This document shows, piece by piece, positions 184-27,045 of a stretch of 35,340 nucleotides of DNA. This DNA comes from Leptospiraceae bacterium. Its GTDB lineage: Bacteria; Spirochaetota; Leptospiria; Leptospirales; Leptospiraceae. The position numbers and the translations under genes are program-made. The notes beneath the pieces were generated by a model. That model was not told where the DNA came from. It did no database searches and was given only the letters and a program-made list of their open reading frames with translations. The stretch spans positions 1-35,340 of the forward strand of contig JAGRNF010000008.1 in assembly GCA_020440865.1 (NCBI GenBank). Direction: 5' to 3'. Each line of letters starts with the position of its first letter. The first letter of the stretch is position 1.

Positions 184-2952
184 ATGAGCACTGTTTTGAA
201 CTTGGTTTTAAAAGGATTTTTCAGTTTATTGATTCTCTTCCCCTTCGACTCACTTAAAGCGGAAACAAAAATTCTCATCGGTTCCATCCGCTCTTTAAAT
301 GCTACAGAAAGTAAGGAAATCGAAGCACTGATTCAAAAAGAATTTTCTGAGTCCTCAGATCCATTTGTATTTTATATAAAACCAATGGAATCTATTAATA
401 AAGGAATCATTGAGGCAAGAACAGGAGGATATCAAATTTATTCGGAGATCTACTACCGAAATTCCGACAGCTTTCCACCGGACGTTTACATTGCATCGTT
501 CGATCCCCAAAATGAATATTTATATGACGTCATTTCCGAAACAACCTTTATCGACCTACCTGCCGAAATAGAAATTTCAGAAGATGAGTTTCAAGAAAGA
601 CCGGAAGACATTATCAAAAGAACCAAAAAAAAATATTTGATCTCCCATTCAGTCAACCCATCCCAAAAAATAATTCGAGACAATATCATTGAAGGATTTA
701 AAAATCCGGAAGTTCGGAACAAACTCCAATCCTTTCGAAAAGCCGAGTCCCAAAAAGAAAAGTCAGAAGATGCTTTTGCGTATCTCAAAGACAATTTTGA
801 AACGGCTACCAGATCCGCTCAAAAACTTGAAGATTTACCAGTAACCGTAGGAGTGATTCGAAGAGAAGAAATCCATAATTACAACTATCGAACATTAGTT
901 GAGGCTTTGAAATTCCAACCGGGGATCATGGTTTCCGAACCGGGCAATGGAGAAGTCGGTCATCATTTTTACCAGAGAGGTCTCCTGGGAAATGAATACA
1001 CTAAAATTCTTTTGAACGGGATCCCTCTGACCCCTTCTGTAGTACAGGGTATGCCCATCAATGAGATGCTATATTTAAAACATGCAGAGTCCATAGAGGT
1101 TGTCTACGGGCCGGCTTCAGCCGTCTATGGATCGGATGCTTTTGCCGGAGTTATCAATATCAAAACAGTTCCCAAAAAAGAAAATCGAATTCATTTGGGA
1201 ACTCATGTAGGTGAATATGGATATTTGAATTTTAATTTTAATGTGGCACAGGCAGTTCCATTGCTGAATGACCATTTACTCGTTCAGGCTTATGGACTCA
1301 AAAGCAATCGGAGCGATCAAAATATTAAAAAAGGGTATTCCGATTCCTATTATGCTGAAAAATACTACCAGAGGAACAATGAATTCGGAAGCAGAGTTAA
1401 TTATTTCTCCGAGCTACCCTCATCCAATTCTTCTTATGGAACAAGTATCACATTCAAAAAATTCTCCTTTTTCTTTGATCAGATGAAGAGGACGGATCAT
1501 AGTAGTATCGGACAACAATCATCTTTTTATGCATACAATGACTCCGGAGCGATTTGGTCGGATACAATTACACGATTTGCTGCCAAAAATTCTTTTGATC
1601 TGGGAAAATTTACCTTTAACACTAATTTGTCATACAACCAATATCGATTGGACAACTCCAGTAATTATAATTTAAAATTTGAAAAATCTCCTCTTTACAA
1701 ATTCATGGGTTCCGATGATGTTCTTTTCGAACAGACAGCAATTTATAAATTGATGAAGGAAGTGGAAATCCTGGGAGGTTTCTCTTATCAATATTCCGGA
1801 GCTTTTCCCAAAACTAATGATCTAAAACTACCTTTCAATGAAAATTTTTATAAACCATTTTCTAGCAAGCTCCCTCCATCCGACCCCGATCTAGGAAATT
1901 TTGGGAACAATCCCCTGCGGTTCCAAAACAAAGGTGGATTTTTGCAAACAACAATCAATATTCAAAATACAACTATTATCGCAGGAGCCAGGTATGATAA
2001 GAATTCTCTCTATGAGGGTTCTTTCAATCCCCGGATCGCATTGATTTACAAACTCACACCAAAGTCTTCCCTTCGAACGTCATACACAGAAGGATTTCGT
2101 GGACCTCCGATTTATTTATCCTACAACTCTATAGCTACAGGAAGTACATCCTCAGGTATCACATATTTGTTTGTCCCAAATAAAAATTTACAACCTGAAA
2201 AACTCAAGTCATATGAACTGGGTTGGAGGTATCTTTATTCAAAAATTAGCTCAGCTGAAATTGTCCTCTTTCACAATTCTGTAAAAAATAAATTCAACTC
2301 TCTAAAAGTAAGAAGGGATGAATACTTATATCCTTATTCCACTCAATCCAGAGTCGATACTTTCGGAAATATCGGAAGATCCGAACTAACGGGAATCGAT
2401 ATCATCTTTCTATTCAAGGAACTATACAAACCGATCCATTTGAACCTTTCACTCTCCAACTCTTTTGCTAAGGGAGTAGAGTATCTTTCTCCGGATTACT
2501 CCAAAGTTGAAAACGAAATTGAAAATTATATTCTAGACCAATACGATCCCAAGAGAAACAAAATCAATAATTATAGATCTGTGCCTCGGCGGATGAACTC
2601 ACTTCGTATCTCATCAAAATTTTTTGAACGTTGGTTTCTCGCTTTAGATCTAATCAATACAGAAGGCTGGTATTCCAAAAACATTCGAACTAAATCCCAA
2701 TACGATACAGCAGAATTCAATCCGACATATAATATTTACTATTCATCCAATAAAATGCAGGGCTATACGATTATCGACTTCAATACATTCTTCGAAATCA
2801 ATCAATATTTTAGACTGGTTTCGAAAATAACAAATCTAACAAATGAAGTGATCAGCGGGAAAGGAGCGTATGATGGAAGCAATAATCTGGACATCCATCC
2901 ACAGTATAGAAGAAATGTTTATGCAGGATTCGAGGTGAACAATGCTTGGTAA
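184..2952 (+). CDS. TonB-dependent receptor-like outer-membrane protein (plug plus beta-barrel) with a long N-terminal extension
   Basis: Plug-domain motifs 'RGLLGNEYTKILLNGIPL' and 'IEVVYGPASAVYGSDAFAGVINIKT'; C-terminal aromatic residue ('...EVNNAW') typical of OM barrels; signal-peptide-like 'MSTVLNLVLKGFFSLLILFPFDSLKA'. The ORF is open from 58; the in-frame ATG at 184 gives the signal peptide. A ~200-aa region lies between signal peptide and plug. Confidence 0.8.
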   Translation: MSTVLNLVLKGFFSLLILFPFDSLKAETKILIGSIRSLNATESKEIEALIQKEFSESSDPFVFYIKPMESINKGIIEARTGGYQIYSEIYYRNSDSFPPDVYIASFDPQNEYLYDVISETTFIDLPAEIEISEDEFQERPEDIIKRTKKKYLISHSVNPSQKIIRDNIIEGFKNPEVRNKLQSFRKAESQKEKSEDAFAYLKDNFETATRSAQKLEDLPVTVGVIRREEIHNYNYRTLVEALKFQPGIMVSEPGNGEVGHHFYQRGLLGNEYTKILLNGIPLTPSVVQGMPINEMLYLKHAESIEVVYGPASAVYGSDAFAGVINIKTVPKKENRIHLGTHVGEYGYLNFNFNVAQAVPLLNDHLLVQAYGLKSNRSDQNIKKGYSDSYYAEKYYQRNNEFGSRVNYFSELPSSNSSYGTSITFKKFSFFFDQMKRTDHSSIGQQSSFYAYNDSGAIWSDTITRFAAKNSFDLGKFTFNTNLSYNQYRLDNSSNYNLKFEKSPLYKFMGSDDVLFEQTAIYKLMKEVEILGGFSYQYSGAFPKTNDLKLPFNENFYKPFSSKLPPSDPDLGNFGNNPLRFQNKGGFLQTTINIQNTTIIAGARYDKNSLYEGSFNPRIALIYKLTPKSSLRTSYTEGFRGPPIYLSYNSIATGSTSSGITYLFVPNKNLQPEKLKSYELGWRYLYSKISSAEIVLFHNSVKNKFNSLKVRRDEYLYPYSTQSRVDTFGNIGRSELTGIDIIFLFKELYKPIHLNLSLSNSFAKGVEYLSPDYSKVENEIENYILDQYDPKRNKINNYRSVPRRMNSLRISSKFFERWFLALDLINTEGWYSKNIRTKSQYDTAEFNPTYNIYYSSNKMQGYTIIDFNTFFEINQYFRLVSKITNLTNEVISGKGAYDGSNNLDIHPQYRRNVYAGFEVNNAW

Positions 2953-4501
2953 GATATTTTTTGTAATCATGCTCTCATTTTCAATTATGCAATCGTCCGC
3001 TATACTAGCAGATGAGAAAAATCTTACAATTCCGGTTATCATTTCATCCAATTCTGCTTCCCATCAAAAATTACTTTCAGGAATAAAATTTACACTCCCA
3101 TTTAAGTTAAAAATTATTTATCTATCTGATAATTCTAAAGAATTGGAATCGGAGTTGAATTCTAACAACTCAAACCTACCTATAATTACCATCGGAAACC
3201 TGGCTACTTCTTATGTTATCAAACGAACAAATAAAAAAGTTATATTTGGCAATACAAATTTCTCAAGAGAAAAAATTGGATATGAAGAAGGAAATACCTG
3301 TGGCTATTTTTCAGAAATTTCTACAGATAGATTATTCTATACCGTAAAAAAAATTGCTCCAAATATCAAACGGATATCCACTATAACAATTTCAAATTCA
3401 GGAAATTATTATACCATGCAGGGGAATTATTCCGACATTTTTCATAGAGTTTTATTTAAATCTATTTTTTTAAATACTCAGGAAGAATTGCAGGAAGTAC
3501 TGCAAAAATTAAAAGGGAATACTGATGCAATTTTTCTCAATTCCGATTCAATTTCTTCTCAGGAAGATTTTGAGATACTTTCAAAGTATTGTCGTGAAAA
3601 CAAAATATTACTTTTTTCTAATATATCTCTTTTAACTGATCTGGGGGTTGGATTCAGTTTGGAACCAGACTTTCTTGAAATGGGCAAAAACATCGGATCT
3701 CTTACAGAAAAAGTAGTTCAGGGCAATGAAGACTGCGGAATGGGACCCTATTTTTTCCCAGAAAAAGACATATTAAGAATCAATAAAGAATATATGGAGA
3801 GTTCAGGATTTTTAGTTTCCAAAGAAATCGAAGAGAAAACGGAATTAGAGTCTTTAAACAATAAAGCAATAGAATTGTATTTAAATGGGAAACGTAATAC
3901 AGCAGGAAATATTTTTAAATATATACTCTCGAAAGATAAGAAGAATAAAACTGCTGCCTCTTATCTTCAGGAAATAAAGAATGAGAAATATGAAGATAAG
4001 ATCAAAGGATTAACTATTCAAGCTGATTCTGCCTTCCAAAAAAATAATTTCATACAGGCTAGGAATTATTATGATGAAATTTTAAAACTCAATCCGAATT
4101 CTCCCGGAATAAATGAAAAACGTGAAATGTGCACTACAGAATATAGCGAACAAAAAAGGAAGCAGGCTTTACAATTAGAAAAATCCAATCGACCGTATGA
4201 AGCAATCCTCATTTACAAGGAATCCATTGCAATTTATCCTCAAAACCAAACATCCCTGCAGGAGTTAGAAAGTCTCAAAAATCGTCTCTCACAAAAAATT
4301 CCTGAAATGCACATTGAAGGTCAATCTTACTATAACACGCGTAATTACAGCGGGGCTATCTCTATTTATAATAATATTTTATTATTGAATGATAATGATA
4401 AAAAAGCAAAAGAGTATCTCAGGCTCTCAATAGAAAAAAAAGAAGCCTTAGAAAAACTTACAAATTGTAAAAATGATAAGGTGAATCCCTGTCCCTTATG
4501 A
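2942..4501 (+). CDS. Secreted periplasmic-binding-protein-like (ABC_sub_bind/PF04392-like) protein with C-terminal TPR repeats
   Basis: N-terminal signal peptide 'MLGKIFFVIMLSFSIMQSSAILA'; PBP-like segment 'TDAIFLNSDSISSQEDFEILSKYCRENKILLFSNISLLTDLGVGFSLEPDFLEMGKNIG'; TPR-like repeats in the C-terminal half. Start overlaps the upstream stop by 11 nt. Confidence 0.6.
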   Translation: MLGKIFFVIMLSFSIMQSSAILADEKNLTIPVIISSNSASHQKLLSGIKFTLPFKLKIIYLSDNSKELESELNSNNSNLPIITIGNLATSYVIKRTNKKVIFGNTNFSREKIGYEEGNTCGYFSEISTDRLFYTVKKIAPNIKRISTITISNSGNYYTMQGNYSDIFHRVLFKSIFLNTQEELQEVLQKLKGNTDAIFLNSDSISSQEDFEILSKYCRENKILLFSNISLLTDLGVGFSLEPDFLEMGKNIGSLTEKVVQGNEDCGMGPYFFPEKDILRINKEYMESSGFLVSKEIEEKTELESLNNKAIELYLNGKRNTAGNIFKYILSKDKKNKTAASYLQEIKNEKYEDKIKGLTIQADSAFQKNNFIQARNYYDEILKLNPNSPGINEKREMCTTEYSEQKRKQALQLEKSNRPYEAILIYKESIAIYPQNQTSLQELESLKNRLSQKIPEMHIEGQSYYNTRNYSGAISIYNNILLLNDNDKKAKEYLRLSIEKKEALEKLTNCKNDKVNPCPL

Positions 4502-6114
4502 AGATCAGTTTTAAATTAACCATTCTTTTGCTACTGGTTTCATTTCTGGCATCCGCTCCTCTCTCTTATATATTTATTGAAAAAAGTGAAGAAATTATAA
4601 CCAAAAAGACCTTTGACCTCTGCTATAATTCAGCATCCAATCTTTCAGCTGTTGCCCGCGAAGAACTTCTATTAAATAATACCTTTGATGGAATAGAAGT
4701 TTTACTGAGTAAATTAAAAAATTCTAATGATCCTTCCCTACTTTCAGTTTATGTAATCAATAAGTACGGAGTGTATGTTGCCGACCTGGAGCAGAAACGA
4801 AAAGGAAAACAGATTTCCCAATCCGATACAGAATATTATAGAACAATAGACAAACCGAATATAAAAGAGATACTTTCTGAAGGAAGCAAAATCATTCGAT
4901 TTGAATTTCCCGTATATCTAGAAGAGTCACAATTCGATTCACTCCGTCTGGGGTATGTAGTCTTTGAATATGATGATCAAATCCTCTATGAATCAGTATA
5001 TCGATTTAAGAAAAACTTATTTTACTTATCGATCGGTTTCTTATTCTTCATTATCATCTTCTCATACATAATTTCAAAAATCTTTTCCAAAAATATCTTA
5101 CTTCTGAGCCAGGGAGTTGAAATCATTGGAAATGGGAATTTGGATTTCAAACTGAAAATCAAATCAAGAGACGAGATCGGCGATTTAGCAAAAAGATTCA
5201 ATGACATGTCCAACAAACTCAAAGAAGCAGATCGGATCAAAGCTGCATTATTGAACTCTTATAGTAAATTTGTTCCCATTGAATTTCTGGACTTTCTCCA
5301 AAAAGATTCAATATTGGATATCAAACTGGGAGATCAGATAGAAATAAATATGTCTATTTTATTTTCCGATATCCGATCTTTTACCTCTATTTCAGAAAAG
5401 CTCACAGCCGAAGAAACGTTTCAATTTGTTAATTCATATTTGGAAGCAATGGTTCCACAAATTCTCCATAATGAAGGATTCATAGATAAGTACATTGGTG
5501 ACGCTATCATGGCACTCTTCCGAACCCCCGAACAGGCGGTAGATGGCGGAATCGATATGCTGGAAAGTTTGTATGTATATAATAAAAATCGAAAAGAACA
5601 AAATAAAGACAAAATCTCTATCGGTATCGGAATTCATACCGGTAAACTCATCTTGGGGATCGTAGGCTCTGAATTGAGAGTTCAGGGGACAGTAATTTCA
5701 GATGCTGTCAATCTTGCCTCCCGACTAGAAGGTCTTACAAAAATGTATGGAGCAAGTCTTTTGATCAGTGAGGACACTCTAAATCAAATTAAAAATAAAG
5801 AACGATACAAATACCGAATCATTGATACGGTAAAAGTAAAAGGAAAAGATATTGCTGTCAATGTTGTTGAAATCTTGAATGGAAATTCTGATAGAATCAT
5901 CAATCTAAAATTATCAACAACCGAAGTATTTAAAAAAGGGATCGACGAGTTTAAGCAGAGAAATTTTAAATTGGCAGTCAAACATTTTCAGGAAGTCTTA
6001 AAAATTGACCCCTTAGATAAGGCAGCACAGATGCATCTTTCTAGATCCCAATATTTTTTTGAACATGGAGTCCCTCCGGATTGGGAAGGGATATCAGCTA
6101 TCACTGAAAAATAG
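4498..6114 (+). CDS. Membrane-bound sensor adenylate/guanylate cyclase (periplasmic domain, TM, HAMP, class III cyclase, C-terminal TPR)
   Basis: Two TM segments flank a ~140-aa periplasmic domain; HAMP 'GNLDFKLKIKSRDEIGDLAKRFNDMSNKLKEA'; cyclase motifs 'ILFSDIRSFTSISE', 'FIDKYIGDAIMALF', 'IGIHTGKLILGIVGS...VISDAVNLASRLE'. ATGA start/stop overlap with the upstream gene. Confidence 0.85.
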   Translation: MKISFKLTILLLLVSFLASAPLSYIFIEKSEEIITKKTFDLCYNSASNLSAVAREELLLNNTFDGIEVLLSKLKNSNDPSLLSVYVINKYGVYVADLEQKRKGKQISQSDTEYYRTIDKPNIKEILSEGSKIIRFEFPVYLEESQFDSLRLGYVVFEYDDQILYESVYRFKKNLFYLSIGFLFFIIIFSYIISKIFSKNILLLSQGVEIIGNGNLDFKLKIKSRDEIGDLAKRFNDMSNKLKEADRIKAALLNSYSKFVPIEFLDFLQKDSILDIKLGDQIEINMSILFSDIRSFTSISEKLTAEETFQFVNSYLEAMVPQILHNEGFIDKYIGDAIMALFRTPEQAVDGGIDMLESLYVYNKNRKEQNKDKISIGIGIHTGKLILGIVGSELRVQGTVISDAVNLASRLEGLTKMYGASLLISEDTLNQIKNKERYKYRIIDTVKVKGKDIAVNVVEILNGNSDRIINLKLSTTEVFKKGIDEFKQRNFKLAVKHFQEVLKIDPLDKAAQMHLSRSQYFFEHGVPPDWEGISAITEK

Positions 6115-6266: not shown

Positions 6267-7424
6267 ATGAAGCCTCGGCTACTCTCAGAAAAAGTCTTAC
6301 AGGTCTATCGTAAATACCCTATTCTTACGATTACCGGCCCCAGACAATCCGGGAAAACTACTCTAAGTAGGATGTTGTTTCCGCAGAAAAAATATGTCAC
6401 TTTAGAAAATCCGGACAATAGAGAATTTGCTCAAGTTGATCCCTTGGGCTTTCTCAAGGAATATGAAAATGGAGCTATCATTGATGAAATCCAACGCTGC
6501 CCTGACCTAGCTTCCTATCTTCAAGGAGAAGTGGATAAAAATAATTCTCCGGGACGTTTCATTCTAACCGGAAGTGGGCAGTTTGAATTGATGCAAAGTG
6601 TTAGCCAGTCGCTTGCGGGAAGAACTGCAATTTTGAGACTACTTCCATTTTCCCTTGAAGAAACCGATTCATTCGTTGAGAGACGGGATAGTAACGAAGT
6701 ATTGTTCACAGGATTTTATCCCAGAATATTCGACCAAAATCTGGACCCTCAGGATTATTATTCATTTTATATAGACACCTACTTACAAAGAGATGTGAGG
6801 ATGATTTTAAATATTCAGGATCTGTCCCGTTTTGAAATTTTCTTAAAACTTTGTGCCGGAAGAACCGGACAAATCTTAAATTACAATGAACTTGGAACTG
6901 CTTCAGGGGTTAGTCACAATACGATTAAATCATGGATCAATGTTCTTGAGGCTAGTTTTATAATCAAACTTATCAGACCGTATTATAAAAATTTAAATTT
7001 ACGTCTTATAAAATCTCCAAAACTATTTTTCTTGGACACCGGACTTGTTTGTTCATTATTAGGAATAAAAAACAGCGAACATATTAAAAATCATCCATTA
7101 AAAGGTGCCATCTTTGAAACATTTATCGTTTCAGAGATTATAAAAAATAGATTCAATAAAGGATTGAAAGAAGATCTTTATTTTCTAAGAGATAGTAAAG
7201 GACATGAAATAGATTTAGTCTTTGACAGCGGTATGACATGCGATTTGTGTGAGATTAAGTCTTCTATGACAATCAATAAAGATTTTTTTAAAAACATTCA
7301 ATATTTTTCTAAAATGGAATTACCCATAAAAAATAAGTATATTATTTATGGAGGAGAGGAAAAAAGAAATCAATTGAAAGTAGAGATCTTACCCTGGGAT
7401 AGGATAAGAGAGATAGAATACTAA
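6267..7424 (+). CDS. AAA+ superfamily ATPase (COG1373-type, DUF4143-containing)
   Basis: Walker A 'ITGPRQSGKTTL'; overall architecture and 385-aa length typical of COG1373 ATPases. Confidence 0.8.
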   Translation: MKPRLLSEKVLQVYRKYPILTITGPRQSGKTTLSRMLFPQKKYVTLENPDNREFAQVDPLGFLKEYENGAIIDEIQRCPDLASYLQGEVDKNNSPGRFILTGSGQFELMQSVSQSLAGRTAILRLLPFSLEETDSFVERRDSNEVLFTGFYPRIFDQNLDPQDYYSFYIDTYLQRDVRMILNIQDLSRFEIFLKLCAGRTGQILNYNELGTASGVSHNTIKSWINVLEASFIIKLIRPYYKNLNLRLIKSPKLFFLDTGLVCSLLGIKNSEHIKNHPLKGAIFETFIVSEIIKNRFNKGLKEDLYFLRDSKGHEIDLVFDSGMTCDLCEIKSSMTINKDFFKNIQYFSKMELPIKNKYIIYGGEEKRNQLKVEILPWDRIREIEY

Positions 7425-7591: not shown

Positions 7592-9256
7592 TCAGACTAC
7601 GGTAGCGATGTCCAAATTTGTTAGCATCTCTGTAGAGAGGGGTAAGATATATACCTTTTCAAATTTATTAAATCCTTTGGCATGAAAATGCGAAAAGTAA
7701 AATTTGAATTTGTATCCACCCAATTCGTATTCATCAAAACCATACAACCTGGAAGTCTCTTCATTCAATTGTTTGATTTCTTTCAAAAGAAAATACTCTC
7801 TCAATAAATCATAGAATTCCTGGTTGAAGCGGATATCAAACCTTGTCTCTTCTAATTTTTCCAGATTGGATGTGATATTTTGATACAAAACATAATCCTG
7901 TATTACTCTTTTAGTTTCCGGGTTAAAATTATTGAGAGATTTTAGTACTGAAGAAACTTCACTTATTTCATGAAATCTACTAATCGCTGTTTTGAAATAT
8001 TCCTGATTGTTTAGTTTCAAATCATTTATGGAAAAATGCTCTAACCTTGCGGCGAAATTTACGGTCTCTCCCGTTACGGTGAAGTCTCTGACAAGCTCAT
8101 TTCCCAAATTGGATCTCAGGATTTCCTTTCCATAACTCACCCCACTCCTCAATCCCAATTCAGAATTCAAGAGGTTTGCATCCTTCAAGAGATCCAATAG
8201 AACCTGATTCAACTGAAATATTGCCCGAAAATTATTGATCACAGTTTCTCTGTCTGACTTTTCCCTATCTGAGGAAGATTCAGATTTTAGAAAAGAACAC
8301 ATGACGTTATCTCCCATAAACTTATCTATACGACCATTGAACTTTTGGGAGACTAATTTTGTTCGCTTGAAAAAGGGTTGCTGAATTTCATTTCTGAATA
8401 CATTTTTTCCATATTTATTCAAAAATACTGTGCTATTTCTCAAATCAGAAAAACTAATCGATCCATGCTCATAAGTATCCGAAACACCAAATTGCAATAC
8501 ATCAGTAAACTTCTTCCAACTTTTGTTGTAATCTTCTTCCGAGCTATCCTCAGATTTTTTACTGGAATGACTGAGACATCTATCTTTGTACTCGTCAGTC
8601 AAATTCTTGAATAGAGTCTTGAATTCCGAATTGGCATCCTTACCGTTCAATACGATGAAATCATCTTTTCCTGAACTATATCTTTTTAATAAGACTGAAT
8701 CCGAGTAATTTAAATCGGGAAATAGAATATTCTCATGTTCTTCGGGAAGTCTCTTTCCGATAAAAACTATTTCATCCGGGAAGAATGTGGCCACAGAAGA
8801 ATCAAGAGCATAGAACCAGAGCAAGCTGGTAGGATAATTTGCATCATAGAAATAATTGCGTATCCAACCTAAATAATCATTGATTTGATTGGATTCATTG
8901 ATCGGAATAAAAAGACAGGTAAGATCATCGAGGGGATCAGAATAAAAATATATTTTAGTCAAATAATCCAATAATTGAAGTGGAGGATTTTCTTCATATT
9001 TCAAAGACAATTGATCGGAAGAAATATTTTTCATAAATCTCCACATGCAAACGCCTTCTTCTTTTTCTACATAAAGTTTATGCACATAACGATAAAGATG
9101 ATAATTCAAATTTGAATAATAATTATTTGCATTGATATAGATTTGTTTGGGAAGTTTCTGAAAGCATTGAGATATTTTTTCTTCGATTAAATTCTGATCT
9201 GATAAAGTAGCCAACTCTGTCAGCAATTCATCCAATGACTTTAATTGTTCCTGCAT
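7592..9256 (-). CDS. Soluble class III nucleotidyl (adenylate/guanylate) cyclase-domain protein with uncharacterised N- and C-terminal regions
   Basis: Central cyclase motifs 'GRIDKFMGDNVMCSF' and 'LGLRSGVSYGKEILRSNLGNELVRDFTVTGETVNFAARLE'; ~260 aa N-terminal and ~130 aa C-terminal without recognisable motifs. Confidence 0.7.
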   Translation of the reverse strand: MQEQLKSLDELLTELATLSDQNLIEEKISQCFQKLPKQIYINANNYYSNLNYHLYRYVHKLYVEKEEGVCMWRFMKNISSDQLSLKYEENPPLQLLDYLTKIYFYSDPLDDLTCLFIPINESNQINDYLGWIRNYFYDANYPTSLLWFYALDSSVATFFPDEIVFIGKRLPEEHENILFPDLNYSDSVLLKRYSSGKDDFIVLNGKDANSEFKTLFKNLTDEYKDRCLSHSSKKSEDSSEEDYNKSWKKFTDVLQFGVSDTYEHGSISFSDLRNSTVFLNKYGKNVFRNEIQQPFFKRTKLVSQKFNGRIDKFMGDNVMCSFLKSESSSDREKSDRETVINNFRAIFQLNQVLLDLLKDANLLNSELGLRSGVSYGKEILRSNLGNELVRDFTVTGETVNFAARLEHFSINDLKLNNQEYFKTAISRFHEISEVSSVLKSLNNFNPETKRVIQDYVLYQNITSNLEKLEETRFDIRFNQEFYDLLREYFLLKEIKQLNEETSRLYGFDEYELGGYKFKFYFSHFHAKGFNKFEKVYILPLSTEMLTNLDIATVV

Positions 9257-9476: not shown

Positions 9477-10259
9477 ATGAACTACAAAAGAGAACATCTA
9501 CAACTCAATAACGGAACCGCTGAAATTATAACCATTCAAACCAATAGTCAAAATTCCTTCACAAAAGCTAATATGCTGGAACTGGGTTCTATTTTAGGAG
9601 ACATAAAGAAAGATGACACAGTAAAAGGCGTCATCATCACCTCAGAAAATCCTAAATTTTTCTGTAATGGACTCGATGCTGAGACTCTATTGAACACTCC
9701 TCCTGATGAATTGGTAGAGGCAGTTGGAGGAATCTGCGTACTTTTTGGAGACTTTCTACGCTTTGATAAACCGGTTGCCATAGAAGTCAACGGACATGCT
9801 ATGGGTGGAGGAGCTGTAATCACAGTAAGTTCAGATTACAAATACATGCTGGAAAGTGGTTGTCGAATTGGTTTCACCGAGGTTATGGTTGGACTTCCTC
9901 TACCGGGTATGTTTGTCCAAAAAATTCAGGATACTGTTCACCCCCAATACATTCATGAAGTTTGTATGGAAGGTTCTACATACAAGGGAAAAGAAGCCAA
10001 GGAAATTGGACTCATTAACGAGACTGCCACAAGCAATGAAGAACTAAGAAAACTATCGACCAAGAAACTGGACACTGTTTTCAAATTTCCCCTCACTGCA
10101 ATTCGTAATACAAAATCAAATATCAACCATAGAGCACTCATGGATTTCAATAAATTTTTAGATGATTCCAGAGGTTGGTTCAATGTTCCGGTGATCAGAG
10201 AAAATCTATTGGAAGCAATGAAAGCTCTCCAGGAAAAGAGAAGAGCTGTCTTAAAATAG
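9477..10259 (+). CDS. Enoyl-CoA hydratase/isomerase (crotonase) family protein
   Basis: Crotonase-fold motifs 'KGVIITSENPKFFCNGLDAETL' and 'AIEVNGHAMGGGAVITVSSDYKYM'. The ORF opens with TTG at 9462; the first ATG is at 9477. Confidence 0.8.
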   Translation: MNYKREHLQLNNGTAEIITIQTNSQNSFTKANMLELGSILGDIKKDDTVKGVIITSENPKFFCNGLDAETLLNTPPDELVEAVGGICVLFGDFLRFDKPVAIEVNGHAMGGGAVITVSSDYKYMLESGCRIGFTEVMVGLPLPGMFVQKIQDTVHPQYIHEVCMEGSTYKGKEAKEIGLINETATSNEELRKLSTKKLDTVFKFPLTAIRNTKSNINHRALMDFNKFLDDSRGWFNVPVIRENLLEAMKALQEKRRAVLK

Positions 10260-10267
10260 ATTTATTT

Positions 10268-11815
10268 CTAAAACTTATACTCTCCACTCAGGAAGGCTTC
10301 CCGGGCGAATGATCCACCCATGAAGTCCCTGAGTGCACGGTATCCATCCGAAGGGAAGAAAATTCCTGATCGAAAGTTTAACTTAAAATCACTGTACACA
10401 CTCCAGGTCAGATTGAAATTGTATTCATCCCCGAAATATGTAGATGAGTTTTGTAAAAATAATGAATTGAACTCTCTATTCACTCCCAGTCTGGGTGCCT
10501 TGGAAGCATGAAGTTGATAGTAACCGAACGTTAGCTGAACCGGTCCGACTACATAATTAGTAAATCCTCCATACTCGATCAAACCTGTCATATTTGAAGC
10601 TGAAAATAATGCATACCCACCGGTAAAATCAACCAGCAAATTAGAGATCGCATAAAGAGGGGCAAGAGGACGATACCCCTGACCTTTCAAATTCGCTGAT
10701 GTCCCATCCGAATCTGTTCCGGGTCTTCCGGTAGTTCCAATTCCAATTAAGTTAAAATTGATAGAATTGTCATAAAAATAGGTTAGCTGAATATCCCCGA
10801 GAGCACCACCGATTTTGTAATCATTATTTCTTTGTATTACAGTAGATTGCGAACTGTTTACTAAAGAATTTGAAGTATGGACAACTCCATGATTGTAAAT
10901 TCCATGAACAATGATATTGAAATCCTTGAGTGTTAACTCATTGAACATACCATGCCAGTAGAGTTGTCCTGTTTCATTATTCGCATCTGTTGCATCATTG
11001 TCTTTGGATACATAGGTATAGATTTCAGTTTTAAAATTATTGATCTGAGAGTATTTGATCTTACCAAAAAACACATTAGAATTTTGACCGTACTTGTCAT
11101 TGTAACCATTTCCATCCAAATCAGCAATGGATCTTTCTCTGGCACGTATCCATCCCCACTCAAATGAAATTTTATCATCTTTAAAATCTTTATTCATATA
11201 GATACCGGGTGCTCTCGTGAATAAAACACGTCCCTGGGGTGAGGAGAACAACTGCAATCCATATCTGGAAAAGAAATCATATTGTCTCAAACGAAAATTT
11301 AAATAGAGAAGATTGGTTTGCATATTGATTGGAGATGTCTGAAACATCTCTCCGCCACTTCCAGCACCGTTGTCATAAGAACTTACCAGATCAGCATTCG
11401 AACCCGAGGTACTGAGAGCTCTACCTCCAAAAGGAATGTCTCCTATTTGAACACCGACAACTCCATCAAAATACTTAGAACTTATGAATTCTAAGTTCAT
11501 AAGTATCCTTGTATCCATGTAATTCAAATGTTCATTTTTGGGAGATCTTGTTGGCTTTTTGCCTTGCATCGCCAGTTCGAGATCTGAATAAATTTTTTCG
11601 TTTGCCTCGACAGTTCTGGCTTTGTACTCAGCGGGAATGTCGTACACGAAATTTGAATTATTGCTTCTGGACACAGGAATATCACGGGCCAAATCAAAAG
11701 CCCTAAGTCTCATGCTACCTGTTAGATTAAATTTTGTACCTTCCGAGCCTGAATCCTGAGAAACAACCGAAAATACAGGAATAAGAAGAAGAATGATTAG
11801 TTTTATTTTACCCAC
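10268..11815 (-). CDS. Outer-membrane beta-barrel protein (porin-like), family not recognised
   Basis: Signal peptide 'MGKIKLIILLLIPVFSVVSQ'; aromatic/Gly-rich alternating pattern; C-terminal '...GEYKF' ending in Phe as in OMP barrels. Start overlaps the upstream gene by 13 nt. Confidence 0.55.
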   Translation of the reverse strand: MGKIKLIILLLIPVFSVVSQDSGSEGTKFNLTGSMRLRAFDLARDIPVSRSNNSNFVYDIPAEYKARTVEANEKIYSDLELAMQGKKPTRSPKNEHLNYMDTRILMNLEFISSKYFDGVVGVQIGDIPFGGRALSTSGSNADLVSSYDNGAGSGGEMFQTSPINMQTNLLYLNFRLRQYDFFSRYGLQLFSSPQGRVLFTRAPGIYMNKDFKDDKISFEWGWIRARERSIADLDGNGYNDKYGQNSNVFFGKIKYSQINNFKTEIYTYVSKDNDATDANNETGQLYWHGMFNELTLKDFNIIVHGIYNHGVVHTSNSLVNSSQSTVIQRNNDYKIGGALGDIQLTYFYDNSINFNLIGIGTTGRPGTDSDGTSANLKGQGYRPLAPLYAISNLLVDFTGGYALFSASNMTGLIEYGGFTNYVVGPVQLTFGYYQLHASKAPRLGVNREFNSLFLQNSSTYFGDEYNFNLTWSVYSDFKLNFRSGIFFPSDGYRALRDFMGGSFAREAFLSGEYKF

Positions 11816-12660
11816 TTATTGCTATTGAAATACTTTTCCTTTAAACGATTCACTTCGCCTGTTCTTTTGATTTCTCTGATGAATAGATTTAGATCAGCCT
11901 GAGTTGTTAAATCATATTTCTTAAAACAAAAAGATACCTGTTTTTCCATAATCGGAGCCGACAGGGCTACAAAACGAGCTTTTAGAGAACTATCTTTCTG
12001 CATTAGGCCTTCTATGTAAAGATTATCTGCTACATAGGTATTAAATTTGTTATCTTTCAATGCTTCCAGCGCAACAAAATCATCCTTGAACTCCATAATT
12101 TGATTCTGTCCGTAGATTGATTTGATGTAATCAAGATTAGAAGTCTTTTCTTTGACACCAAAGCTCAACCTGGATAAACTTTTGAGATCCAATAAACTTC
12201 TAAAATTTTTGTTCAAAACGATATCACCTTCCTGTTCGGGGGGTAAAATCATCTTATTTACCAACCCTCCTACAGAAACTATCAAATAAGGATCCGAAAA
12301 ATAAACATATTTCATTCGAATCATAGACGATGAATTGCCCAATGCCAGGTCTACAATTCCCTGATTCACGGCCAAAGCATGTTCTGAAAAATTGTTTAAT
12401 GGAAGAATCTTTTCTATTTCAACTCCTAAATAATCTGCATACTTTTCTGCGATTTCTACTTCGAAACCGGGGTATCCGGGCTTAGGATTGTCAATATAAT
12501 AAGGTTCATAATTGGCACCAACTGATACAGTTAGTTTTTTCTTTTTAAGAATACGGTACAAAACTGATTTTTTATCTAAGGAAAGTAGATTTACAAATGG
12601 TGTAGTGATTAACAGTAATAAAAATGCTCGTGTAATTATTTTTTTTCTCAAGTTCATCAT
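11803..12660 (-). CDS. Periplasmic solute-binding protein, family 3 (polar amino-acid-binding type)
   Basis: Signal peptide; SBP_bac_3 motifs 'KLTVSVGANYEPYYI...GYPGFEVEIAEKYADYLGVEIE' and 'YFSDPY'. Confidence 0.8.
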   Translation of the reverse strand: MMNLRKKIITRAFLLLLITTPFVNLLSLDKKSVLYRILKKKKLTVSVGANYEPYYIDNPKPGYPGFEVEIAEKYADYLGVEIEKILPLNNFSEHALAVNQGIVDLALGNSSSMIRMKYVYFSDPYLIVSVGGLVNKMILPPEQEGDIVLNKNFRSLLDLKSLSRLSFGVKEKTSNLDYIKSIYGQNQIMEFKDDFVALEALKDNKFNTYVADNLYIEGLMQKDSSLKARFVALSAPIMEKQVSFCFKKYDLTTQADLNLFIREIKRTGEVNRLKEKYFNSNKWVK

Positions 12661-12672
12661 TTCTCCTAACTA

Positions 12673-14667
12673 TCATGGTATATCTATAACAAGGATTGTT
12701 ATATCATCGTCAAATTCTTTTGCAAAACCAATCCATTCTTTGACCCGATAAGCAATAAAATAGTTCAATCCCTCAGCATTCATCGAAGCGTTTGATTTGA
12801 CAGCGATTTCAAAATTATCATAATCAAACATCTCATGCTTCTCATTGAACGCTTCAATAACTCCATCGGTGTAGATAATTATCCTATCCCCACTAGCAAA
12901 TTTATATTGATGTTCTTTTAACTTTATATTTTCAAACCATCCTATGAATTGACCCTTACATTCCAAATAAATAACTTTGTCTTCATTCCTTTTGTGAACC
13001 ATAATAGCAGGATGTCCCGCACTGCAATAGGTTAAGATATTTGATCTAAGACTAAAATGCGCATACACTGCTGTGACAAATTTTTTACCAAGATTGCCCA
13101 AAAGAGATGTATTCATCTTTCTCAACGCTGCTTCCGGCCTATGATAATAAGAATGGGAAGCCTTGAATGCCACTTTCAACATGGAAGCAACAAGAGCTGC
13201 TGCAGGTCCATGCCCGGAAACGTCCGCCACAAAACATGTGAAGGATTGTGGATCCTTTACATAAAAATCATAATAGTCTCCACCGATTTGCTTCATGGGA
13301 AGATAGTAAGCGGCCAGATCACAACCTTTTAACTTTGGAACACCCTCAGGCAATAAAGAGAGTTGCATTTTTTCAGCAAGATTCAATTCTTTTTTTATGC
13401 CTGTTATTTCATTTGACATCTCATCTTTTTCGATTTGCAATCGATTCATTTTTGAGAGAATAGCCAGGGCGACAAAGAGCATTTGAAGTGAAGAGCCCAG
13501 TGCGGAGGAATATTCACTGTAGTAATAATTTTCTATAGGAATAATTGAAAAGATTTTCCCCAGAAGTAAAAATGACCATCCGAGTATGAAGTACTTCGCA
13601 GGCTGAAATCCTTTTCGGTAAACATAGAAAGAAGAAATGTAAAATCCCAAAATGTACAAAAATCCAACAGTCAAAGCTATATACATTATATTTTCATTGA
13701 TCAATGAAGGTAATGGCAAAAACAGGAAGATCACCAGAGACATGATTCCCAGGGTTCGATGCAGCTTAGTATGATAAAATTTTAAATTCAAAAAATCTCT
13801 GGCAAATAAGGTAGCGAAAAATAAGGACATTACAAAAGCAAAGTACCAAATACTCGTGTTGATTTCAGGATTTTCAGGATATACAAAGTAGGTAGTGAGC
13901 GAACTCTGAGAAAGTTGATAGATTCCATCGAAGAACATCACACCGAAATAGTAGAGATAAGAATAATCCCTTAGATAATAAAAAATCGAGAAACTAAAAA
14001 TAGACATGAATATAATGATTCCATAAAATATTCCTGTCAGCACATAGTTTTTTAAAAAATAATCCAACAAACTGGAGATGCTAAAAATCTCTATCTGGGT
14101 GAACGCAATCAAATCTGATTGAATATCCAAATATATCTTTATAGATTCATTTGGAGATAAATGCACAGGAAATAGGGAATCGATCATATGGATCGGTTTG
14201 TATTTCAAAGGTAAACTACTCCCACCCTGAAATCTCTCCATATTTTCATTTTCATGTACTACATAACAAATAATTTTATCGAGAGCAAATTCTTTTATGG
14301 AAATAAATATAGGTACTTCGGTAGATCCTGAGTTCTTGAGTGAAAACCTGGTCCATAAATGTGTACCCCCACCAGGATAGACATATGCAACAGGTGACCT
14401 GGAAATTTCCCAATTCTTTTCATCTGAATGTATGACTTTTAATAAATCCTGCTCATTGACTAGATTGTAATTATTTTCAAGAAACGGTAAGATATTTAGA
14501 GTCTCATTTTTCAAATCAGAAACCTCTACAGGTTCAGAAAAAAGGGAAAATGAAAACACAAGTAGACTGATTAAGTATAGTTTCACAGTACATATACTTA
14601 GACTACCTGATCTGAATTTTCTTATAAAATTTGAGAACACATTGAAATCAGGATTTTTTATTATCAA
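12673..14667 (-). CDS. 7TM-receptor-type (7TMR-DISM-like) sensor fused to PP2C/SpoIIE serine phosphatase
   Basis: ~250-aa extracytoplasmic domain, 7 hydrophobic TM segments, coiled-coil linker, PP2C motifs 'QIGGDYYDF', 'ADVSGHGPAAALVASM', 'CSAGHPAIMV', 'IIIYTDGVIEA'. An alternative GTG start at 14589 would give a cleaner signal peptide 'MKLYLISLLVFSFSLFS'. Confidence 0.85.
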   Translation of the reverse strand: MIIKNPDFNVFSNFIRKFRSGSLSICTVKLYLISLLVFSFSLFSEPVEVSDLKNETLNILPFLENNYNLVNEQDLLKVIHSDEKNWEISRSPVAYVYPGGGTHLWTRFSLKNSGSTEVPIFISIKEFALDKIICYVVHENENMERFQGGSSLPLKYKPIHMIDSLFPVHLSPNESIKIYLDIQSDLIAFTQIEIFSISSLLDYFLKNYVLTGIFYGIIIFMSIFSFSIFYYLRDYSYLYYFGVMFFDGIYQLSQSSLTTYFVYPENPEINTSIWYFAFVMSLFFATLFARDFLNLKFYHTKLHRTLGIMSLVIFLFLPLPSLINENIMYIALTVGFLYILGFYISSFYVYRKGFQPAKYFILGWSFLLLGKIFSIIPIENYYYSEYSSALGSSLQMLFVALAILSKMNRLQIEKDEMSNEITGIKKELNLAEKMQLSLLPEGVPKLKGCDLAAYYLPMKQIGGDYYDFYVKDPQSFTCFVADVSGHGPAAALVASMLKVAFKASHSYYHRPEAALRKMNTSLLGNLGKKFVTAVYAHFSLRSNILTYCSAGHPAIMVHKRNEDKVIYLECKGQFIGWFENIKLKEHQYKFASGDRIIIYTDGVIEAFNEKHEMFDYDNFEIAVKSNASMNAEGLNYFIAYRVKEWIGFAKEFDDDITILVIDIP

Positions 14668-26935: not shown

Positions 26936-26947
26936 AGCATTGATTTT

Positions 26948-27045
26948 TATAATCATTTTCAAAAAGATTTGTGTACTCACTAGTAAATCAGCAATAAAAT
27001 GGCTAATATCGTAAACAGAAAAACGCATTTATTTTTGAAAATTAG
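26948..27045 (+). repeat. Interspersed ~100-bp element, family 1, copy A3
   Basis: 'ttataatcattttcaaaaagatttgtgtactcactagtaaatcagcaataaaATGgctaatatcgtaaacagaaaaacgcatttatttttgaaaat'; TATAAT in place of TATAGT. Confidence 0.65.

Follow-up and report, generated by a model that had tools for sequence, protein, structure and literature searches.

A TonB-dependent receptor, a TPR-fused solute-binding protein and a HAMP adenylate cyclase as a probable envelope-spanning sensing unit of Leptospirales

TonB-dependent transducers of the FecA/FpvA type mediate cell-surface signalling to anti-sigma/ECF sigma factors, and resemble the locus described here in linking a TonB-dependent receptor (TBDR), with an extra periplasmic N-terminal domain before the TonB box, to an inner-membrane signalling gene. 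LuxP-LuxQ, TorT-TorS and ChvE-VirA are membrane sensors dependent on solute-binding proteins (SBPs), in which the liganded SBP docks on the periplasmic domain of the sensor and regulates a cytoplasmic enzyme. The present locus would share that principle with these sensors, but they are histidine kinases or chemoreceptors, with neither a dedicated outer-membrane receptor gene nor a TPR fusion. An analogue that does include the outer membrane is the PAH-sensing pathway PahS-PahP-PahK(-PahR) of Cycloclasticus sp. P1, published in iScience in 2023 (PMC10570129). There, a clustered trio encodes a TBDR-type outer-membrane protein, a two-lobe periplasmic SBP and an inner-membrane sensor, and the proposed flow runs from outer-membrane receptor to SBP to inner-membrane sensor, with the SBP engaged in signalling and not in ABC transport. 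For AgtS and AruS with their adjacent SBPs, an orphan or dual-use SBP gene likewise adjoins a membrane sensor (PMC11113362, PMC9602780). The YfiBNR (TpbB) system of Pseudomonas aeruginosa likewise has three parts, namely an outer-membrane protein, a soluble regulator in the periplasm and an inner-membrane periplasmic-domain-HAMP nucleotide cyclase, and the signal is relayed by the periplasmic protein changing its binding partner (PMC3375315, PMC4655355, PMC4887326).

The window analysed here, 35,340 nucleotides of a Leptospiraceae bacterium (contig JAGRNF010000008.1), holds at positions 184-6114 three genes on the + strand (ORFs 58/184-2952, 2942-4501 and 4498-6114) with overlapping stop and start codons, and their products are a TBDR, an SBP-TPR fusion and an adenylate cyclase. 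The reading favoured here, with somewhat better than even confidence, is that the three genes form one Leptospirales-specific envelope-spanning sensing unit, in which signalling would pass from TBDR to SBP-TPR to cyclase. The sequence itself shows the junctions reported in the initial annotation: the TBDR and SBP-TPR genes overlap by 11 nt (2942-2952; ATG at 2942, TAA at 2950-2952), and the SBP-TPR and cyclase genes share an ATGA at 4498-4501. In a public annotation of the identical contig the middle gene begins at ATG 2969, which shortens the product to 510 aa and abolishes the overlap. The evidence favours ATG 2942, because a Shine-Dalgarno sequence is present (GAGGTG, 5 nt upstream), the n-region of the signal peptide gains a Lys, and the TBDR/SBP overlap is kept in homologous loci (-7, -11 and -7 nt). 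The TBDR start is ambiguous between ATG 184, ATG 166 and GTG 58, and the window edge cuts the upstream region.

Counted from ATG 184, the TBDR (184-2952, +) has 922 aa. Its plug (826-1152; residues 215-323; PF07715, 63.2 bits, E 3.6e-17) and beta-barrel (1396-2949; residues 405-885; PF00593, 105.4 bits, E 8.3e-30) both score above the Pfam cut-offs and the protein ends in ...NNAW, with the aromatic Trp last, which bears out its assignment as a receptor. Homologues with 59-62% identity occupy the same position in three other loci (L001-L003). Between residues 26 and 215 (259-828, +) lies a periplasmic N-terminal extension (NTE) of roughly 190 aa, made up of an alpha/beta domain (about residues 26-120) and a helical linker; PahS, of 687 aa, has no such extension. 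The NTE is a folded periplasmic domain of the protein-interaction type, with an LpoB/PelC/TolB-N-like fold in place of an STN domain, and the TBDR was therefore rejected as a FecA-type transducer. Nor did the window or the gene tables of the loci contain sigma or anti-sigma genes. Just before the plug, the motif DAFAYLKDNFETATR (769-813, +; residues 196-210) sits where a TonB box is expected, and is a putative one. F198, L201, T207, A208 and T209 are invariant in TBDR alignments, and similar segments occur in L004 (..TTSATK), L016 (..VEAASK) and L017 (..VSAASK). In the last two loci the triad is kept although the TBDR has no NTE, and the extension is therefore not essential to the principle.

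The 519-aa product of the middle gene (2942-4501, +) is a secreted orphan SBP fused to TPRs. Its probable signal peptide (2942-3013, +; residues 1-24, ...SSAILA/DEK, with a hydrophobic segment at residues 4-24) has no Cys, from which a soluble periplasmic protein is predicted rather than a lipoprotein. Residues about 27-293 (3020-3820, +) form a PF04392-type (class I / cluster B) solute-binding domain. The Pfam score (23.9 bits) falls just below the gathering score of 25.9, but the assignment is confirmed, at the level of profile and model, by a family profile of 8 sequences searched against the PDB (3LFT, 5.6e-15; 6HNI, 7e-13; 3LKV, 1.4e-8) and by an AF2 model (pLDDT 86) whose top Foldseek matches are 6hni, 6hnj, 3lkv and 3lft at about 1e-10. 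Homology of fold and profile thus extends to SP1069/TrpX (3LFT), VC_1101 (3LKV) and CD0873 (6HNI). All 54 family members compared have G85, G121 and D202, and C120 and C265 are nearly invariant among them. The remainder (3821-4498, +; residues about 294-510) is an all-helical TPR domain of about 215 aa (TPR_2, 39 bits), followed by a C-terminal NCKNDKVNPCPL tail with two Cys. Its helices are modelled from H294 to H510 at pLDDT of about 95, an EYLRLS motif is conserved, and the domain is weakly BamD-like (TIGR03302, E 1e-5; PDB 3qky/5efr). Clustered at 50% identity, its full-length relatives form about 55 groups, almost all of them from MAGs of Leptospirales. PahP, with 318 aa and no TPR domain, can be likened to this protein by layout.

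Aromatic amino acids are the ligands of those PF04392 proteins that have been characterised (PMC10443332, PMC6816091); these proteins are lipoproteins/SBPs of 290-340 aa, encoded with an ABC permease and ATPase and specific for Trp, Phe or Tyr, whereas SBP-TPR is an orphan, is TPR-fused and shares only about 15% identity with them. Their role in transport lends something to the idea that TBDR and SBP are a nutrient uptake pair feeding an ABC transporter encoded elsewhere, with the enzyme using its own periplasmic domain (about 145 aa) for independent sensing and either regulating uptake or being merely co-expressed; SBP genes far from their transporters do exist (PMC9602780). Permease and ATPase genes are, however, absent from all 14 loci compared and from the 35-kb window, which argues for an SBP devoted to signalling rather than transport, and a TPR fusion is not a feature of transport SBPs. 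The uptake reading is further opposed by an SBP-TPR/sensor junction that almost always overlaps, and by the co-divergence of SBP-TPR with the sensor, which spans three types of output and three gene orders, as set out below; it is judged improbable.

The third gene (4498-6114, +) encodes an inner-membrane class III adenylate cyclase of 538 aa with the layout TM-periplasmic domain-TM-HAMP-catalytic domain, as first annotated. Hydropathy places TM1 at about residues 5-27 and TM2 at about 172-196. The intervening periplasmic sensor domain (4579-5010, +; residues 28-171) found no sequence relative in the PDB. PahK, which has a histidine kinase output, was described without a periplasmic sensor domain, in contrast to the conserved domain of about 145 aa found here, where a HAMP adenylate cyclase or, in other loci, a PP2C or HK-REC-cyclase provides the output. 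The HAMP domain (5080-5223, +; residues 195-242; PF00672, 37.6 bits) also has HAMP matches in the PDB. In the catalytic domain (5347-5850, +; residues 284-451; PF00211, Guanylate_cyc, 69.7 bits), the metal residues D291/D335, the substrate-specifying K331/T398 and the transition-state N405/R409 are invariant in four orthologues, and alignment thus shows every residue that conversion of ATP to cAMP should need. The initial annotation had left the product as cAMP or cGMP; cAMP, and not cGMP, is predicted because of the Lys331/Thr398 pair and because the closest solved relatives (OaPAC, CyaB and bPAC) are adenylyl cyclases. A TPR-like cytoplasmic tail (5890-6111, +), with weak TPR_1/TPR_2 matches at residues 479-505, is kept in orthologues and ends in the conserved motif HGVPPDWEG.

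The layout and the domain types together raise the alternative of a YfiBNR-like switch without ligand import. SBP-TPR would then be a periplasmic repressor or activator of the sensor, the TBDR NTE would sequester or release it upon receptor occupancy or a change of envelope state, and the SBP cleft might hold nothing from outside the cell. Such a switch is unlikely, though it deserves more weight than the uptake pair. The outer-membrane/periplasmic/inner-membrane-cyclase arrangement mirrors YfiB/YfiR/YfiN (PMC3375315, PMC4655355), the NTE has the fold of the periplasmic outer-membrane lipoprotein regulators LpoB and PelC and of the TolB N-domain, and the weakly BamD-like TPR is a protein-binding module. 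YfiB is an OmpA/Pal-like lipoprotein and not a TBDR, YfiR is a DUF4154 protein and not PF04392 plus TPR, and the YfiBNR output is a GGDEF diguanylate cyclase and not a class III adenylate cyclase; a Pfam search detected no homology of the triad to YfiBNR, and no DUF4154 or OmpA-like domain in its proteins. Also against the switch, the TBDR has kept its complete plug and barrel and a TonB-box-like segment, which speaks for a receptor that does handle a ligand. The SBP keeps its two-lobe fold and the PF04392-conserved G121 and D202 in 54 members, and the triads of L016 and L017 do without the NTE that the switch would employ.

Comparison of 14 distinct loci, all from MAGs or metagenomes and known from sequence alone, bears on the favoured sensing unit. 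SBP-TPR adjoins a TBDR in 12 of the 14 and a membrane signalling enzyme in 12 of the 14, the exceptions in each case having lost the flank to a contig end. In all loci where it was measured, the spacing between the SBP-TPR gene and its neighbouring sensor gene lies between -17 and +2 nt. The synteny queried at the outset is conserved in divergent Leptospirales genomes: at least 12 distinct loci, of 26 to 60% GC and with unrelated flanking genes, contain the triad, and its adjacency is therefore not due to chance. That the three genes are adjacent and translationally coupled yet functionally unconnected can draw on the general point that gene overlap by itself proves no functional link, and on nothing else; recurrence of this breadth, in three orders and with swapped outputs, effectively refutes it as far as comparative data can, and it is barely credible.

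The enzyme partner is a HAMP-adenylate cyclase in seven loci, in the order TBDR, SBP-TPR, cyclase (the window, L001, L002, L003, L006, L008 and L010), a HAMP-HisKA-HATPase-REC-cyclase in one (L012, which is paralogous and shares its MAG with L010) and a HAMP-SpoIIE (PP2C) protein in four (L013, L016, L017 and L009), while L015 has two TBDRs and SBP-TPR followed by cyclase ORFs. Three gene orders occur: sensor-SBP-TBDR in L013, SBP-sensor-TBDR in L016 and TBDR-SBP-sensor in L017. The adenylate cyclase is thus one of several interchangeable outputs, so that the real unit is an input module and not a cAMP-specific system.

Residues 1-250 of the window cyclase can be aligned from end to end with both the HK-cyclase (36% identity, 1.6e-46) and a PP2C protein (31%, 2e-31), and the periplasmic domain alone matches those of L012 (35%, 1e-27) and L013 (32%, 1e-15); by these alignments, enzymes of several output types have a homologous TM-periplasmic-HAMP input module. 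Similarity of SBP-TPR and of the sensor input module is closely correlated (Spearman 0.94, 36 locus pairs), a value confounded by shared phylogeny, whereas the barrels of the TBDRs differ greatly from one subfamily to another and follow SBP-TPR only weakly (rho about 0.5, with the same confounder). This far tighter co-divergence with the sensor than with the TBDR counts in favour of the YfiBNR-like switch; the weak correlation is compatible with a front end that is loosely coupled or exchangeable, and also with a weaker functional link. Joint inheritance of TBDR, SBP-TPR and the TM-periplasmic domain-TM-HAMP enzyme is nevertheless shown by the locus comparison, as is a conserved, co-diverging input of SBP-TPR and the sensor periplasmic/HAMP module to which the cytoplasmic output is swapped. 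The suggestion in the initial annotation that the SBP is the intermediary between receptor and cyclase is strongly supported, because TBDR and SBP-TPR recur in three orders with enzymes of different output, and because the homologous input module co-diverges with SBP-TPR.

As to ligand and mechanism of the favoured sensing unit, we infer the following route. The TBDR would bind an extracellular ligand and TonB energy would move it into the periplasm, where the SBP domain would capture it; ligand-loaded SBP-TPR may then dock on the cyclase at its periplasmic domain of roughly 145 aa, and HAMP would relay the change across the membrane to alter cAMP synthesis. The TPR domain and the LpoB/TolB-N-like TBDR extension are likely contact surfaces tethering SBP to receptor, and the SBP may shuttle between or bridge the outer and inner membranes, as proposed for PahS-PahP-PahK. 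Precedents are the TBDR-SBP-sensor relay (PMC10570129) and the sbp genes that adjoin the sensor kinases their products activate (PMC11113362).

A signalling reading of the triad is thus supported by its genes and their relatives. The further statement that no signalling system of this architecture had been described is partly right; it was too strong, given PahS-PahP-PahK, the SBP-activated sensors and the established YfiBNR. PahS-PahP-PahK belongs to gammaproteobacteria and the present triad to Leptospirales. The triad points to a possible route from the cell surface to cAMP.

The three genes lie on the + strand at 184-6114, with open reading frames for a TonB-dependent receptor (TBDR; 58/184-2952, +), a PF04392-type solute-binding protein fused to TPR repeats (SBP-TPR; 2942-4501, +) and a HAMP class III cyclase (4498-6114, +). 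The overlapping stops and starts described in the initial annotation are borne out by these reading frames and by both junctions. The cyclase start codon (ATG 4498) and the TGA that ends the middle gene overlap as ATGA, while in the window sequence ATG 2942 is preceded by GAGGTG at 5 nt, and the TBDR stop codon (TAA 2950-2952) ends 11 nt further on. In the public gene call of an identical contig (L007), the middle gene instead begins at ATG 2969; its product is then 510 aa long, and the overlap disappears. ATG 2942 is preferred as the probable start, because a Shine-Dalgarno sequence is present, the n-region of the signal peptide gains a Lys, and the TBDR/SBP overlap recurs in orthologous loci (-7, -11 and -7 nt). 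The TBDR start is ambiguous (ATG 184, ATG 166 or GTG 58), and the promoter region is truncated by the window edge. Predicted promoters and terminators were no more numerous than in shuffled sequence, and the scans marked no operon boundaries. In addition, an Rfam search upstream of the TBDRs of the window and nine other loci found no riboswitch or other RNA, and therefore provided no clue to the ligand.

TonB-dependent receptors have an N-terminal Plug, a C-terminal 22-strand beta-barrel with an aromatic last residue, and a TonB box before the plug. The product of the first gene carries Plug PF07715 at residues 215-323 (63.2 bits, cut-off 23.9) and TonB_dep_Rec_b-barrel PF00593 at residues 405-885 (105.4 bits, cut-off 27), and terminates in ...EVNNAW, with Trp last, in agreement with the plug motifs and terminal Trp of the initial annotation. 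A conserved DAFxYLKEQFDTATR segment immediately N-terminal of the plug occupies the TonB-box position and partly matches the xVVTATR consensus; it is a putative TonB box. No NCBIfam model reached its cut-off against the TBDR, and therefore no substrate class can be assigned to it. The receptor also carries a periplasmic N-terminal extension of non-STN type, with an LpoB/TolB-N-like fold, and a word-indexed homologue search with this extension returned solely a fragment of itself. TBDRs without the extension (L016, L017) are paired with an SBP-TPR that is ~70 aa shorter, but this correlation is confined to a single clade and is therefore not counted in favour of contact between the extension and the TPRs. 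In one metagenome contig (L006, 4267-6953) the TBDR orthologue is divided between two overlapping reading frames of 282 aa (partial Plug) and 615 aa (barrel), the sign of a frameshift or pseudogene, or else of an error in sequencing.

FecA-type transducers possess an STN signalling domain (secretin/TonB short N-terminal) and adjacent genes for FecR-like anti-sigma and ECF sigma factors. A transducer of this type was considered and rejected here, the STN domain being absent from the TBDR according to both Pfam and the fold of the N-terminal extension. FecR-like anti-sigma and ECF sigma genes were absent from the 35-kb window and from the gene tables of L001-L017, the homologous loci from MAGs and metagenome contigs used for neighbourhood comparison.

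The signal peptide of the SBP-TPR has no Cys, and the protein is therefore predicted to be soluble and periplasmic; its C-terminal tail contains two Cys residues. As a single sequence it scored 23.9 bits against PF04392, slightly below the gathering score of 25.9. A precomputed PF04392 match is nevertheless recorded for seven of its eight close homologues, and a profile of the eight-sequence family matches the PF04392 structures 3LFT (5.6e-15), 6HNI (7e-13) and 3LKV. The best Foldseek matches of the AF2 model (pLDDT 86) are 6hni, 6hnj, 3lkv and 3lft, with a probability of 1.00 and TM (target) of 0.57-0.71. On the family profile and the modelled fold, the protein is assigned to the PF04392 ABC_sub_bind SBPs, with a predicted two-lobe class I fold. 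Residues 294-510 form a confidently modelled, all-helical TPR domain, with weak similarity to BamD. The reading of the middle gene as a signal peptide, a PF04392-like fold and TPRs thus holds, the family profile and fold matches backing a marginal single-sequence score.

Characterised PF04392 proteins are SBPs of ABC importers, with Trp, Tyr or Phe as ligands (PMC10443332, PMC6816091). ABC permease or ATPase genes adjoin the SBP-TPR in none of the loci examined, the window included, and it is therefore an orphan SBP; given also an identity of ~15% to the characterised proteins, its ligand cannot be inferred. The importer role of the characterised proteins would suit a transport pair standing beside a regulator that senses independently, but with no ABC genes adjoining, and with the SBP-TPR and sensor similarities correlated as described below, such an arrangement is quite improbable.

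The third gene encodes the periplasmic-domain, HAMP and class III cyclase layout ascribed to it earlier: TM1 (residues ~5-27), a periplasmic domain of ~145 aa (28-171), TM2 (172-196), HAMP (195-242), the class III catalytic domain (284-451; PF00211 at 69.7 bits, cut-off 21.9) and a cytoplasmic TPR-like tail (465-538). When the sensor N-terminus was compared with PDB as a profile, the HAMP part alone was matched, and no sequence relative of the periplasmic domain was found. The TM and HAMP segments may account for the NCBIfam WalK match over residues 3-246. The tail contains a conserved segment with an invariant HGVPxDWEG motif, and C-terminal TPRs are also found on the PP2C partner in L013 and on the HAMP-SpoIIE protein of the window.

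In class III cyclases, Lys with Asp/Thr specifies adenine, versus Glu/Cys in guanylate cyclases, and Lys/Thr for ATP is the class IIIb pattern. The metal-binding D291 and D335 and the transition-state N405 and R409 are all in place and do not vary among orthologues; the same is true of K331 and T398, which align with the Lys/Thr pair of OaPAC KFIGD...YTILGDAVN. The closest solved relatives of the catalytic domain are the adenylyl cyclases OaPAC (best PDB match, 8e-25), CyaB and bPAC. Because these six residues are kept and the nearest solved relatives are adenylyl cyclases, the predicted product is cAMP and not cGMP. Of the cAMP/cGMP output first envisaged, the class III cyclase and cAMP are retained, and cGMP is rejected on the Lys/Thr substrate pair and the adenylyl-cyclase relatives.

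A word-indexed search with the SBP-TPR yielded eight relatives, the same by single sequence and by profile. When 1.84 billion representatives were searched exhaustively by profile, the full-length SBP+TPR proteins amounted to ~55 clusters (at 50% identity); they are ~450-545 aa in length and align in one stretch with E values from 1e-241 to 1e-78. Versions of ~450 aa with shorter TPR regions were found as well. Peptide-pattern scans, using one or two short patterns, retrieved two loci from genome contigs and one from metagenome contigs, and carry little weight for distribution. Where the source was named, the carriers were Leptospiraceae, Leptospira sp., Leptospirales and Turneriella MAGs, with one MAG labelled Candidatus Sericytochromatia. 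This last (L013, GCA_026005135.1) is a cyanobacteria-related label on a 26% GC contig that holds the module and Leptospira-style HAMP-SpoIIE-TPR genes; the contig may have been wrongly binned or classified, or horizontal transfer may be involved.

The order TBDR, SBP-TPR, HAMP-adenylate cyclase is found in the window and in L001, L002, L003, L006, L008 and L010, with flanking genes that all differ. In L012, a paralogous locus from the same MAG as L010, the third gene encodes a HAMP-HisKA-HATPase-REC-cyclase. Elsewhere the sensor is a SpoIIE-type PP2C phosphatase: HAMP-SpoIIE-TPR precedes SBP-TPR and TBDR in L013, HAMP-SpoIIE lies between SBP-TPR and TBDR in L016 (Turneriella MAG) and HAMP-SpoIIE follows TBDR and SBP-TPR in L017. 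L009 shares the sensor-to-SBP order of L013, and L004 (Leptospira sp. MAG) has SBP-TPR followed by TBDR. L015 (Leptospirales MAG, 60% GC) has two TBDR genes, then SBP-TPR and uncalled membrane and class III cyclase ORFs. These ORFs fall within 9615-11018, 3' of its SBP-TPR, where no gene is called: a multi-TM ORF (9615-10199) is followed by a cyclase ORF (10242-11018) that is 28% identical to the window cyclase domain and has no HAMP domain, and the two may be one gene broken by a frameshift or assembly error. The loci span 26 to 60% GC, and wherever the spacing of SBP-TPR and the neighbouring sensor gene was measured, it lies between -17 and +2 nt. The window and at least 12 related loci thus combine a TBDR with a periplasmic SBP and an inner-membrane sensor in one gene cluster, and the synteny of the trio holds in divergent loci with different flanks. 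Adjacency of the three genes through mere chance, set beside this recurrence, is scarcely credible.

The AAA_14/DUF4143 ATPase gene immediately 3' of the cyclase (6267-7424, +) is present in L007 but absent from every orthologous locus, and therefore falls outside the module. Convergent with the trio is a gene (7592-9256, -) whose 554-aa product has a class III cyclase domain of degenerate type (Guanylate_cyc 20.9 bits, slightly below its cut-off, 21.9) and lacks any predicted membrane or HAMP region. A second, closely packed cluster of sensor and binding protein occupies 10268-14667 (-), comprising a 7TMR-DISM/SpoIIE phosphatase (12673-14667, -), an SBP_bac_3 binding protein (11803-12660, -) and, with a 13-nt overlap, a 515-aa protein without a Pfam match (10268-11815, -). 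The window content, at ~35% GC, fits Leptospiraceae, with four SpoIIE/PP2C sensor phosphatases (12673-14667, 23376-24788, 24926-27028 and 28822-32028), of which two are 7TMR-DISM receptors, another has 470 aa and the fourth is a 1068-aa HAMP-SpoIIE-TPR protein with the same output architecture as that attached to the SBP-TPR/TBDR module in L013.

Across several of these sensors of differing output, the input module (TM, periplasmic domain, TM and HAMP) is homologous. Residues 1-250 of the window cyclase can be aligned over their whole length to the N-terminal parts of two other sensors, the L012 HK-cyclase (36% identity, 1.6e-46) and the L013 PP2C (31% identity, 2e-31), and the periplasmic domain aligns on its own (1e-27 and 1e-15, respectively). 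The PP2Cs of L016 and L017 have the same architecture, with a longer periplasmic domain that shows no detectable similarity. Pairwise similarities of SBP-TPR and sensor input module are correlated at Spearman 0.94 over 36 locus pairs, while the TBDR barrels, strongly divergent between subfamilies, reach a correlation of only ~0.5; phylogeny confounds both values. Although phylogeny confounds them, these correlations show that the SBP-TPR and sensor input have stayed together, whereas the output domain and, in part, the TBDR have been exchanged. Paralogous copies of the module, two or more per Leptospiraceae genome, were observed in GCA_016718635.1 (L010 and L012) and in MAGs IPG24 and IPQ05. 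Because single genomes hold paralogous modules with different outputs (AC and HK-REC-AC in L010 and L012), duplication followed by output swapping inside one lineage is suggested.

The genes accordingly constitute a conserved three-component unit, the invariant core of which is the SBP-TPR and the periplasmic-domain/HAMP sensor, with the TBDR consistently alongside. No ABC transporter or sigma/anti-sigma pair accompanies it in the loci examined, and no riboswitch in the window and nine further loci. The three genes probably act as a functional module, with less certainty over the detailed order of events. An external ligand would be bound and imported by the TBDR and captured by the orphan SBP; the liganded SBP-TPR would then dock on the periplasmic domain of the sensor, and the HAMP domain would pass the change on to the adenylate cyclase. 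Candidate contact surfaces are offered by the TPR domain and by the LpoB/TolB-N-like extension of the TBDR, through which the receptor may retain the SBP or release it to the sensor. The signalling role proposed in the initial annotation is largely supported by the conserved unit and the co-divergence, with corrections on four points, namely cGMP, the STN transducer, the claim of an undescribed system and the cyclase as sole output.

The general kind of system is already known. SBPs that activate adjacent membrane sensors have been reported (PMC11113362, PMC9602780), and a TBDR-SBP-kinase relay has been published for the PahS-PahP-PahK gene cluster, in which PahP is proposed to leave PahS upon ligand binding and then dock on PahK (PMC10570129). 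As in Pah, the TBDR gene is clustered with those of a periplasmic SBP and an inner-membrane sensor, a likeness of gene arrangement, and the proposed holding or hand-over of the SBP at the receptor resembles the passage of PahP from PahS to PahK. However, PahK, a histidine kinase, is reported to have no periplasmic sensor domain, whereas the window sensor is a HAMP-adenylate cyclase with a conserved ~145-aa periplasmic domain. YfiBNR is a relay from outer membrane through periplasm and inner membrane to a nucleotide cyclase (PMC3375315, PMC4655355), and would be the model for a sequestration switch operating with no ligand import. The module has three-tier logic alone in common with YfiBNR, and the three window proteins gave no Pfam or NCBIfam matches to DUF4154 (YfiR), OmpA (YfiB) or GGDEF; a switch of this type is unlikely, although a better candidate than the transport pair.

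Import and relay through the SBP-TPR remains the preferred reading, and it is set apart from known relays by the PF04392+TPR fusion adaptor, the non-STN extension of the TBDR, the sensor input module with swappable outputs (AC, HK-REC-AC and PP2C), cAMP as the predicted output in the window, and restriction to Leptospirales among the carriers found, the one MAG labelled Candidatus Sericytochromatia apart. Literature on PF04392 with TBDRs, on Leptospira TBDRs with cyclases and on TonB-dependent transducers with cyclases or PP2C, of incomplete coverage and with all members of the family uncultured, contained no description of the module. The claim of novelty is to that extent upheld, but must be read beside the published TBDR-SBP-kinase analogue (PMC10570129). 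It is conceivable, if somewhat short of probable, that the module represents an unrecognised class of diderm cell-surface signalling, running from TBDR through an SBP-TPR adaptor to sensors of swappable output and not from STN to anti-sigma factor, with the TBDR extension a new periplasmic signalling domain that engages the TPRs. If so, TonB-dependent-receptor-to-cAMP signalling would have its first example here, and parallel routes would lead to PP2C partner-switching and to histidine kinases.

The use of TBDRs as a signalling front end would then extend past the sigma/anti-sigma paradigm, with cAMP and a partner-switching phosphatase joining the outputs. Moreover, natural output swapping on a conserved input offers a ready-made system for studying the coupling of HAMP to different enzymes, and could also serve in the construction of sensors for compounds too large to diffuse across the outer membrane. 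Leptospira and its relatives possess unusually many adenylate cyclases and PP2C phosphatases, and to our knowledge the input signals of almost all of these are unknown. For a whole set of these enzymes the module provides a concrete, testable input path, from outer-membrane receptor through binding protein to periplasmic sensor domain.
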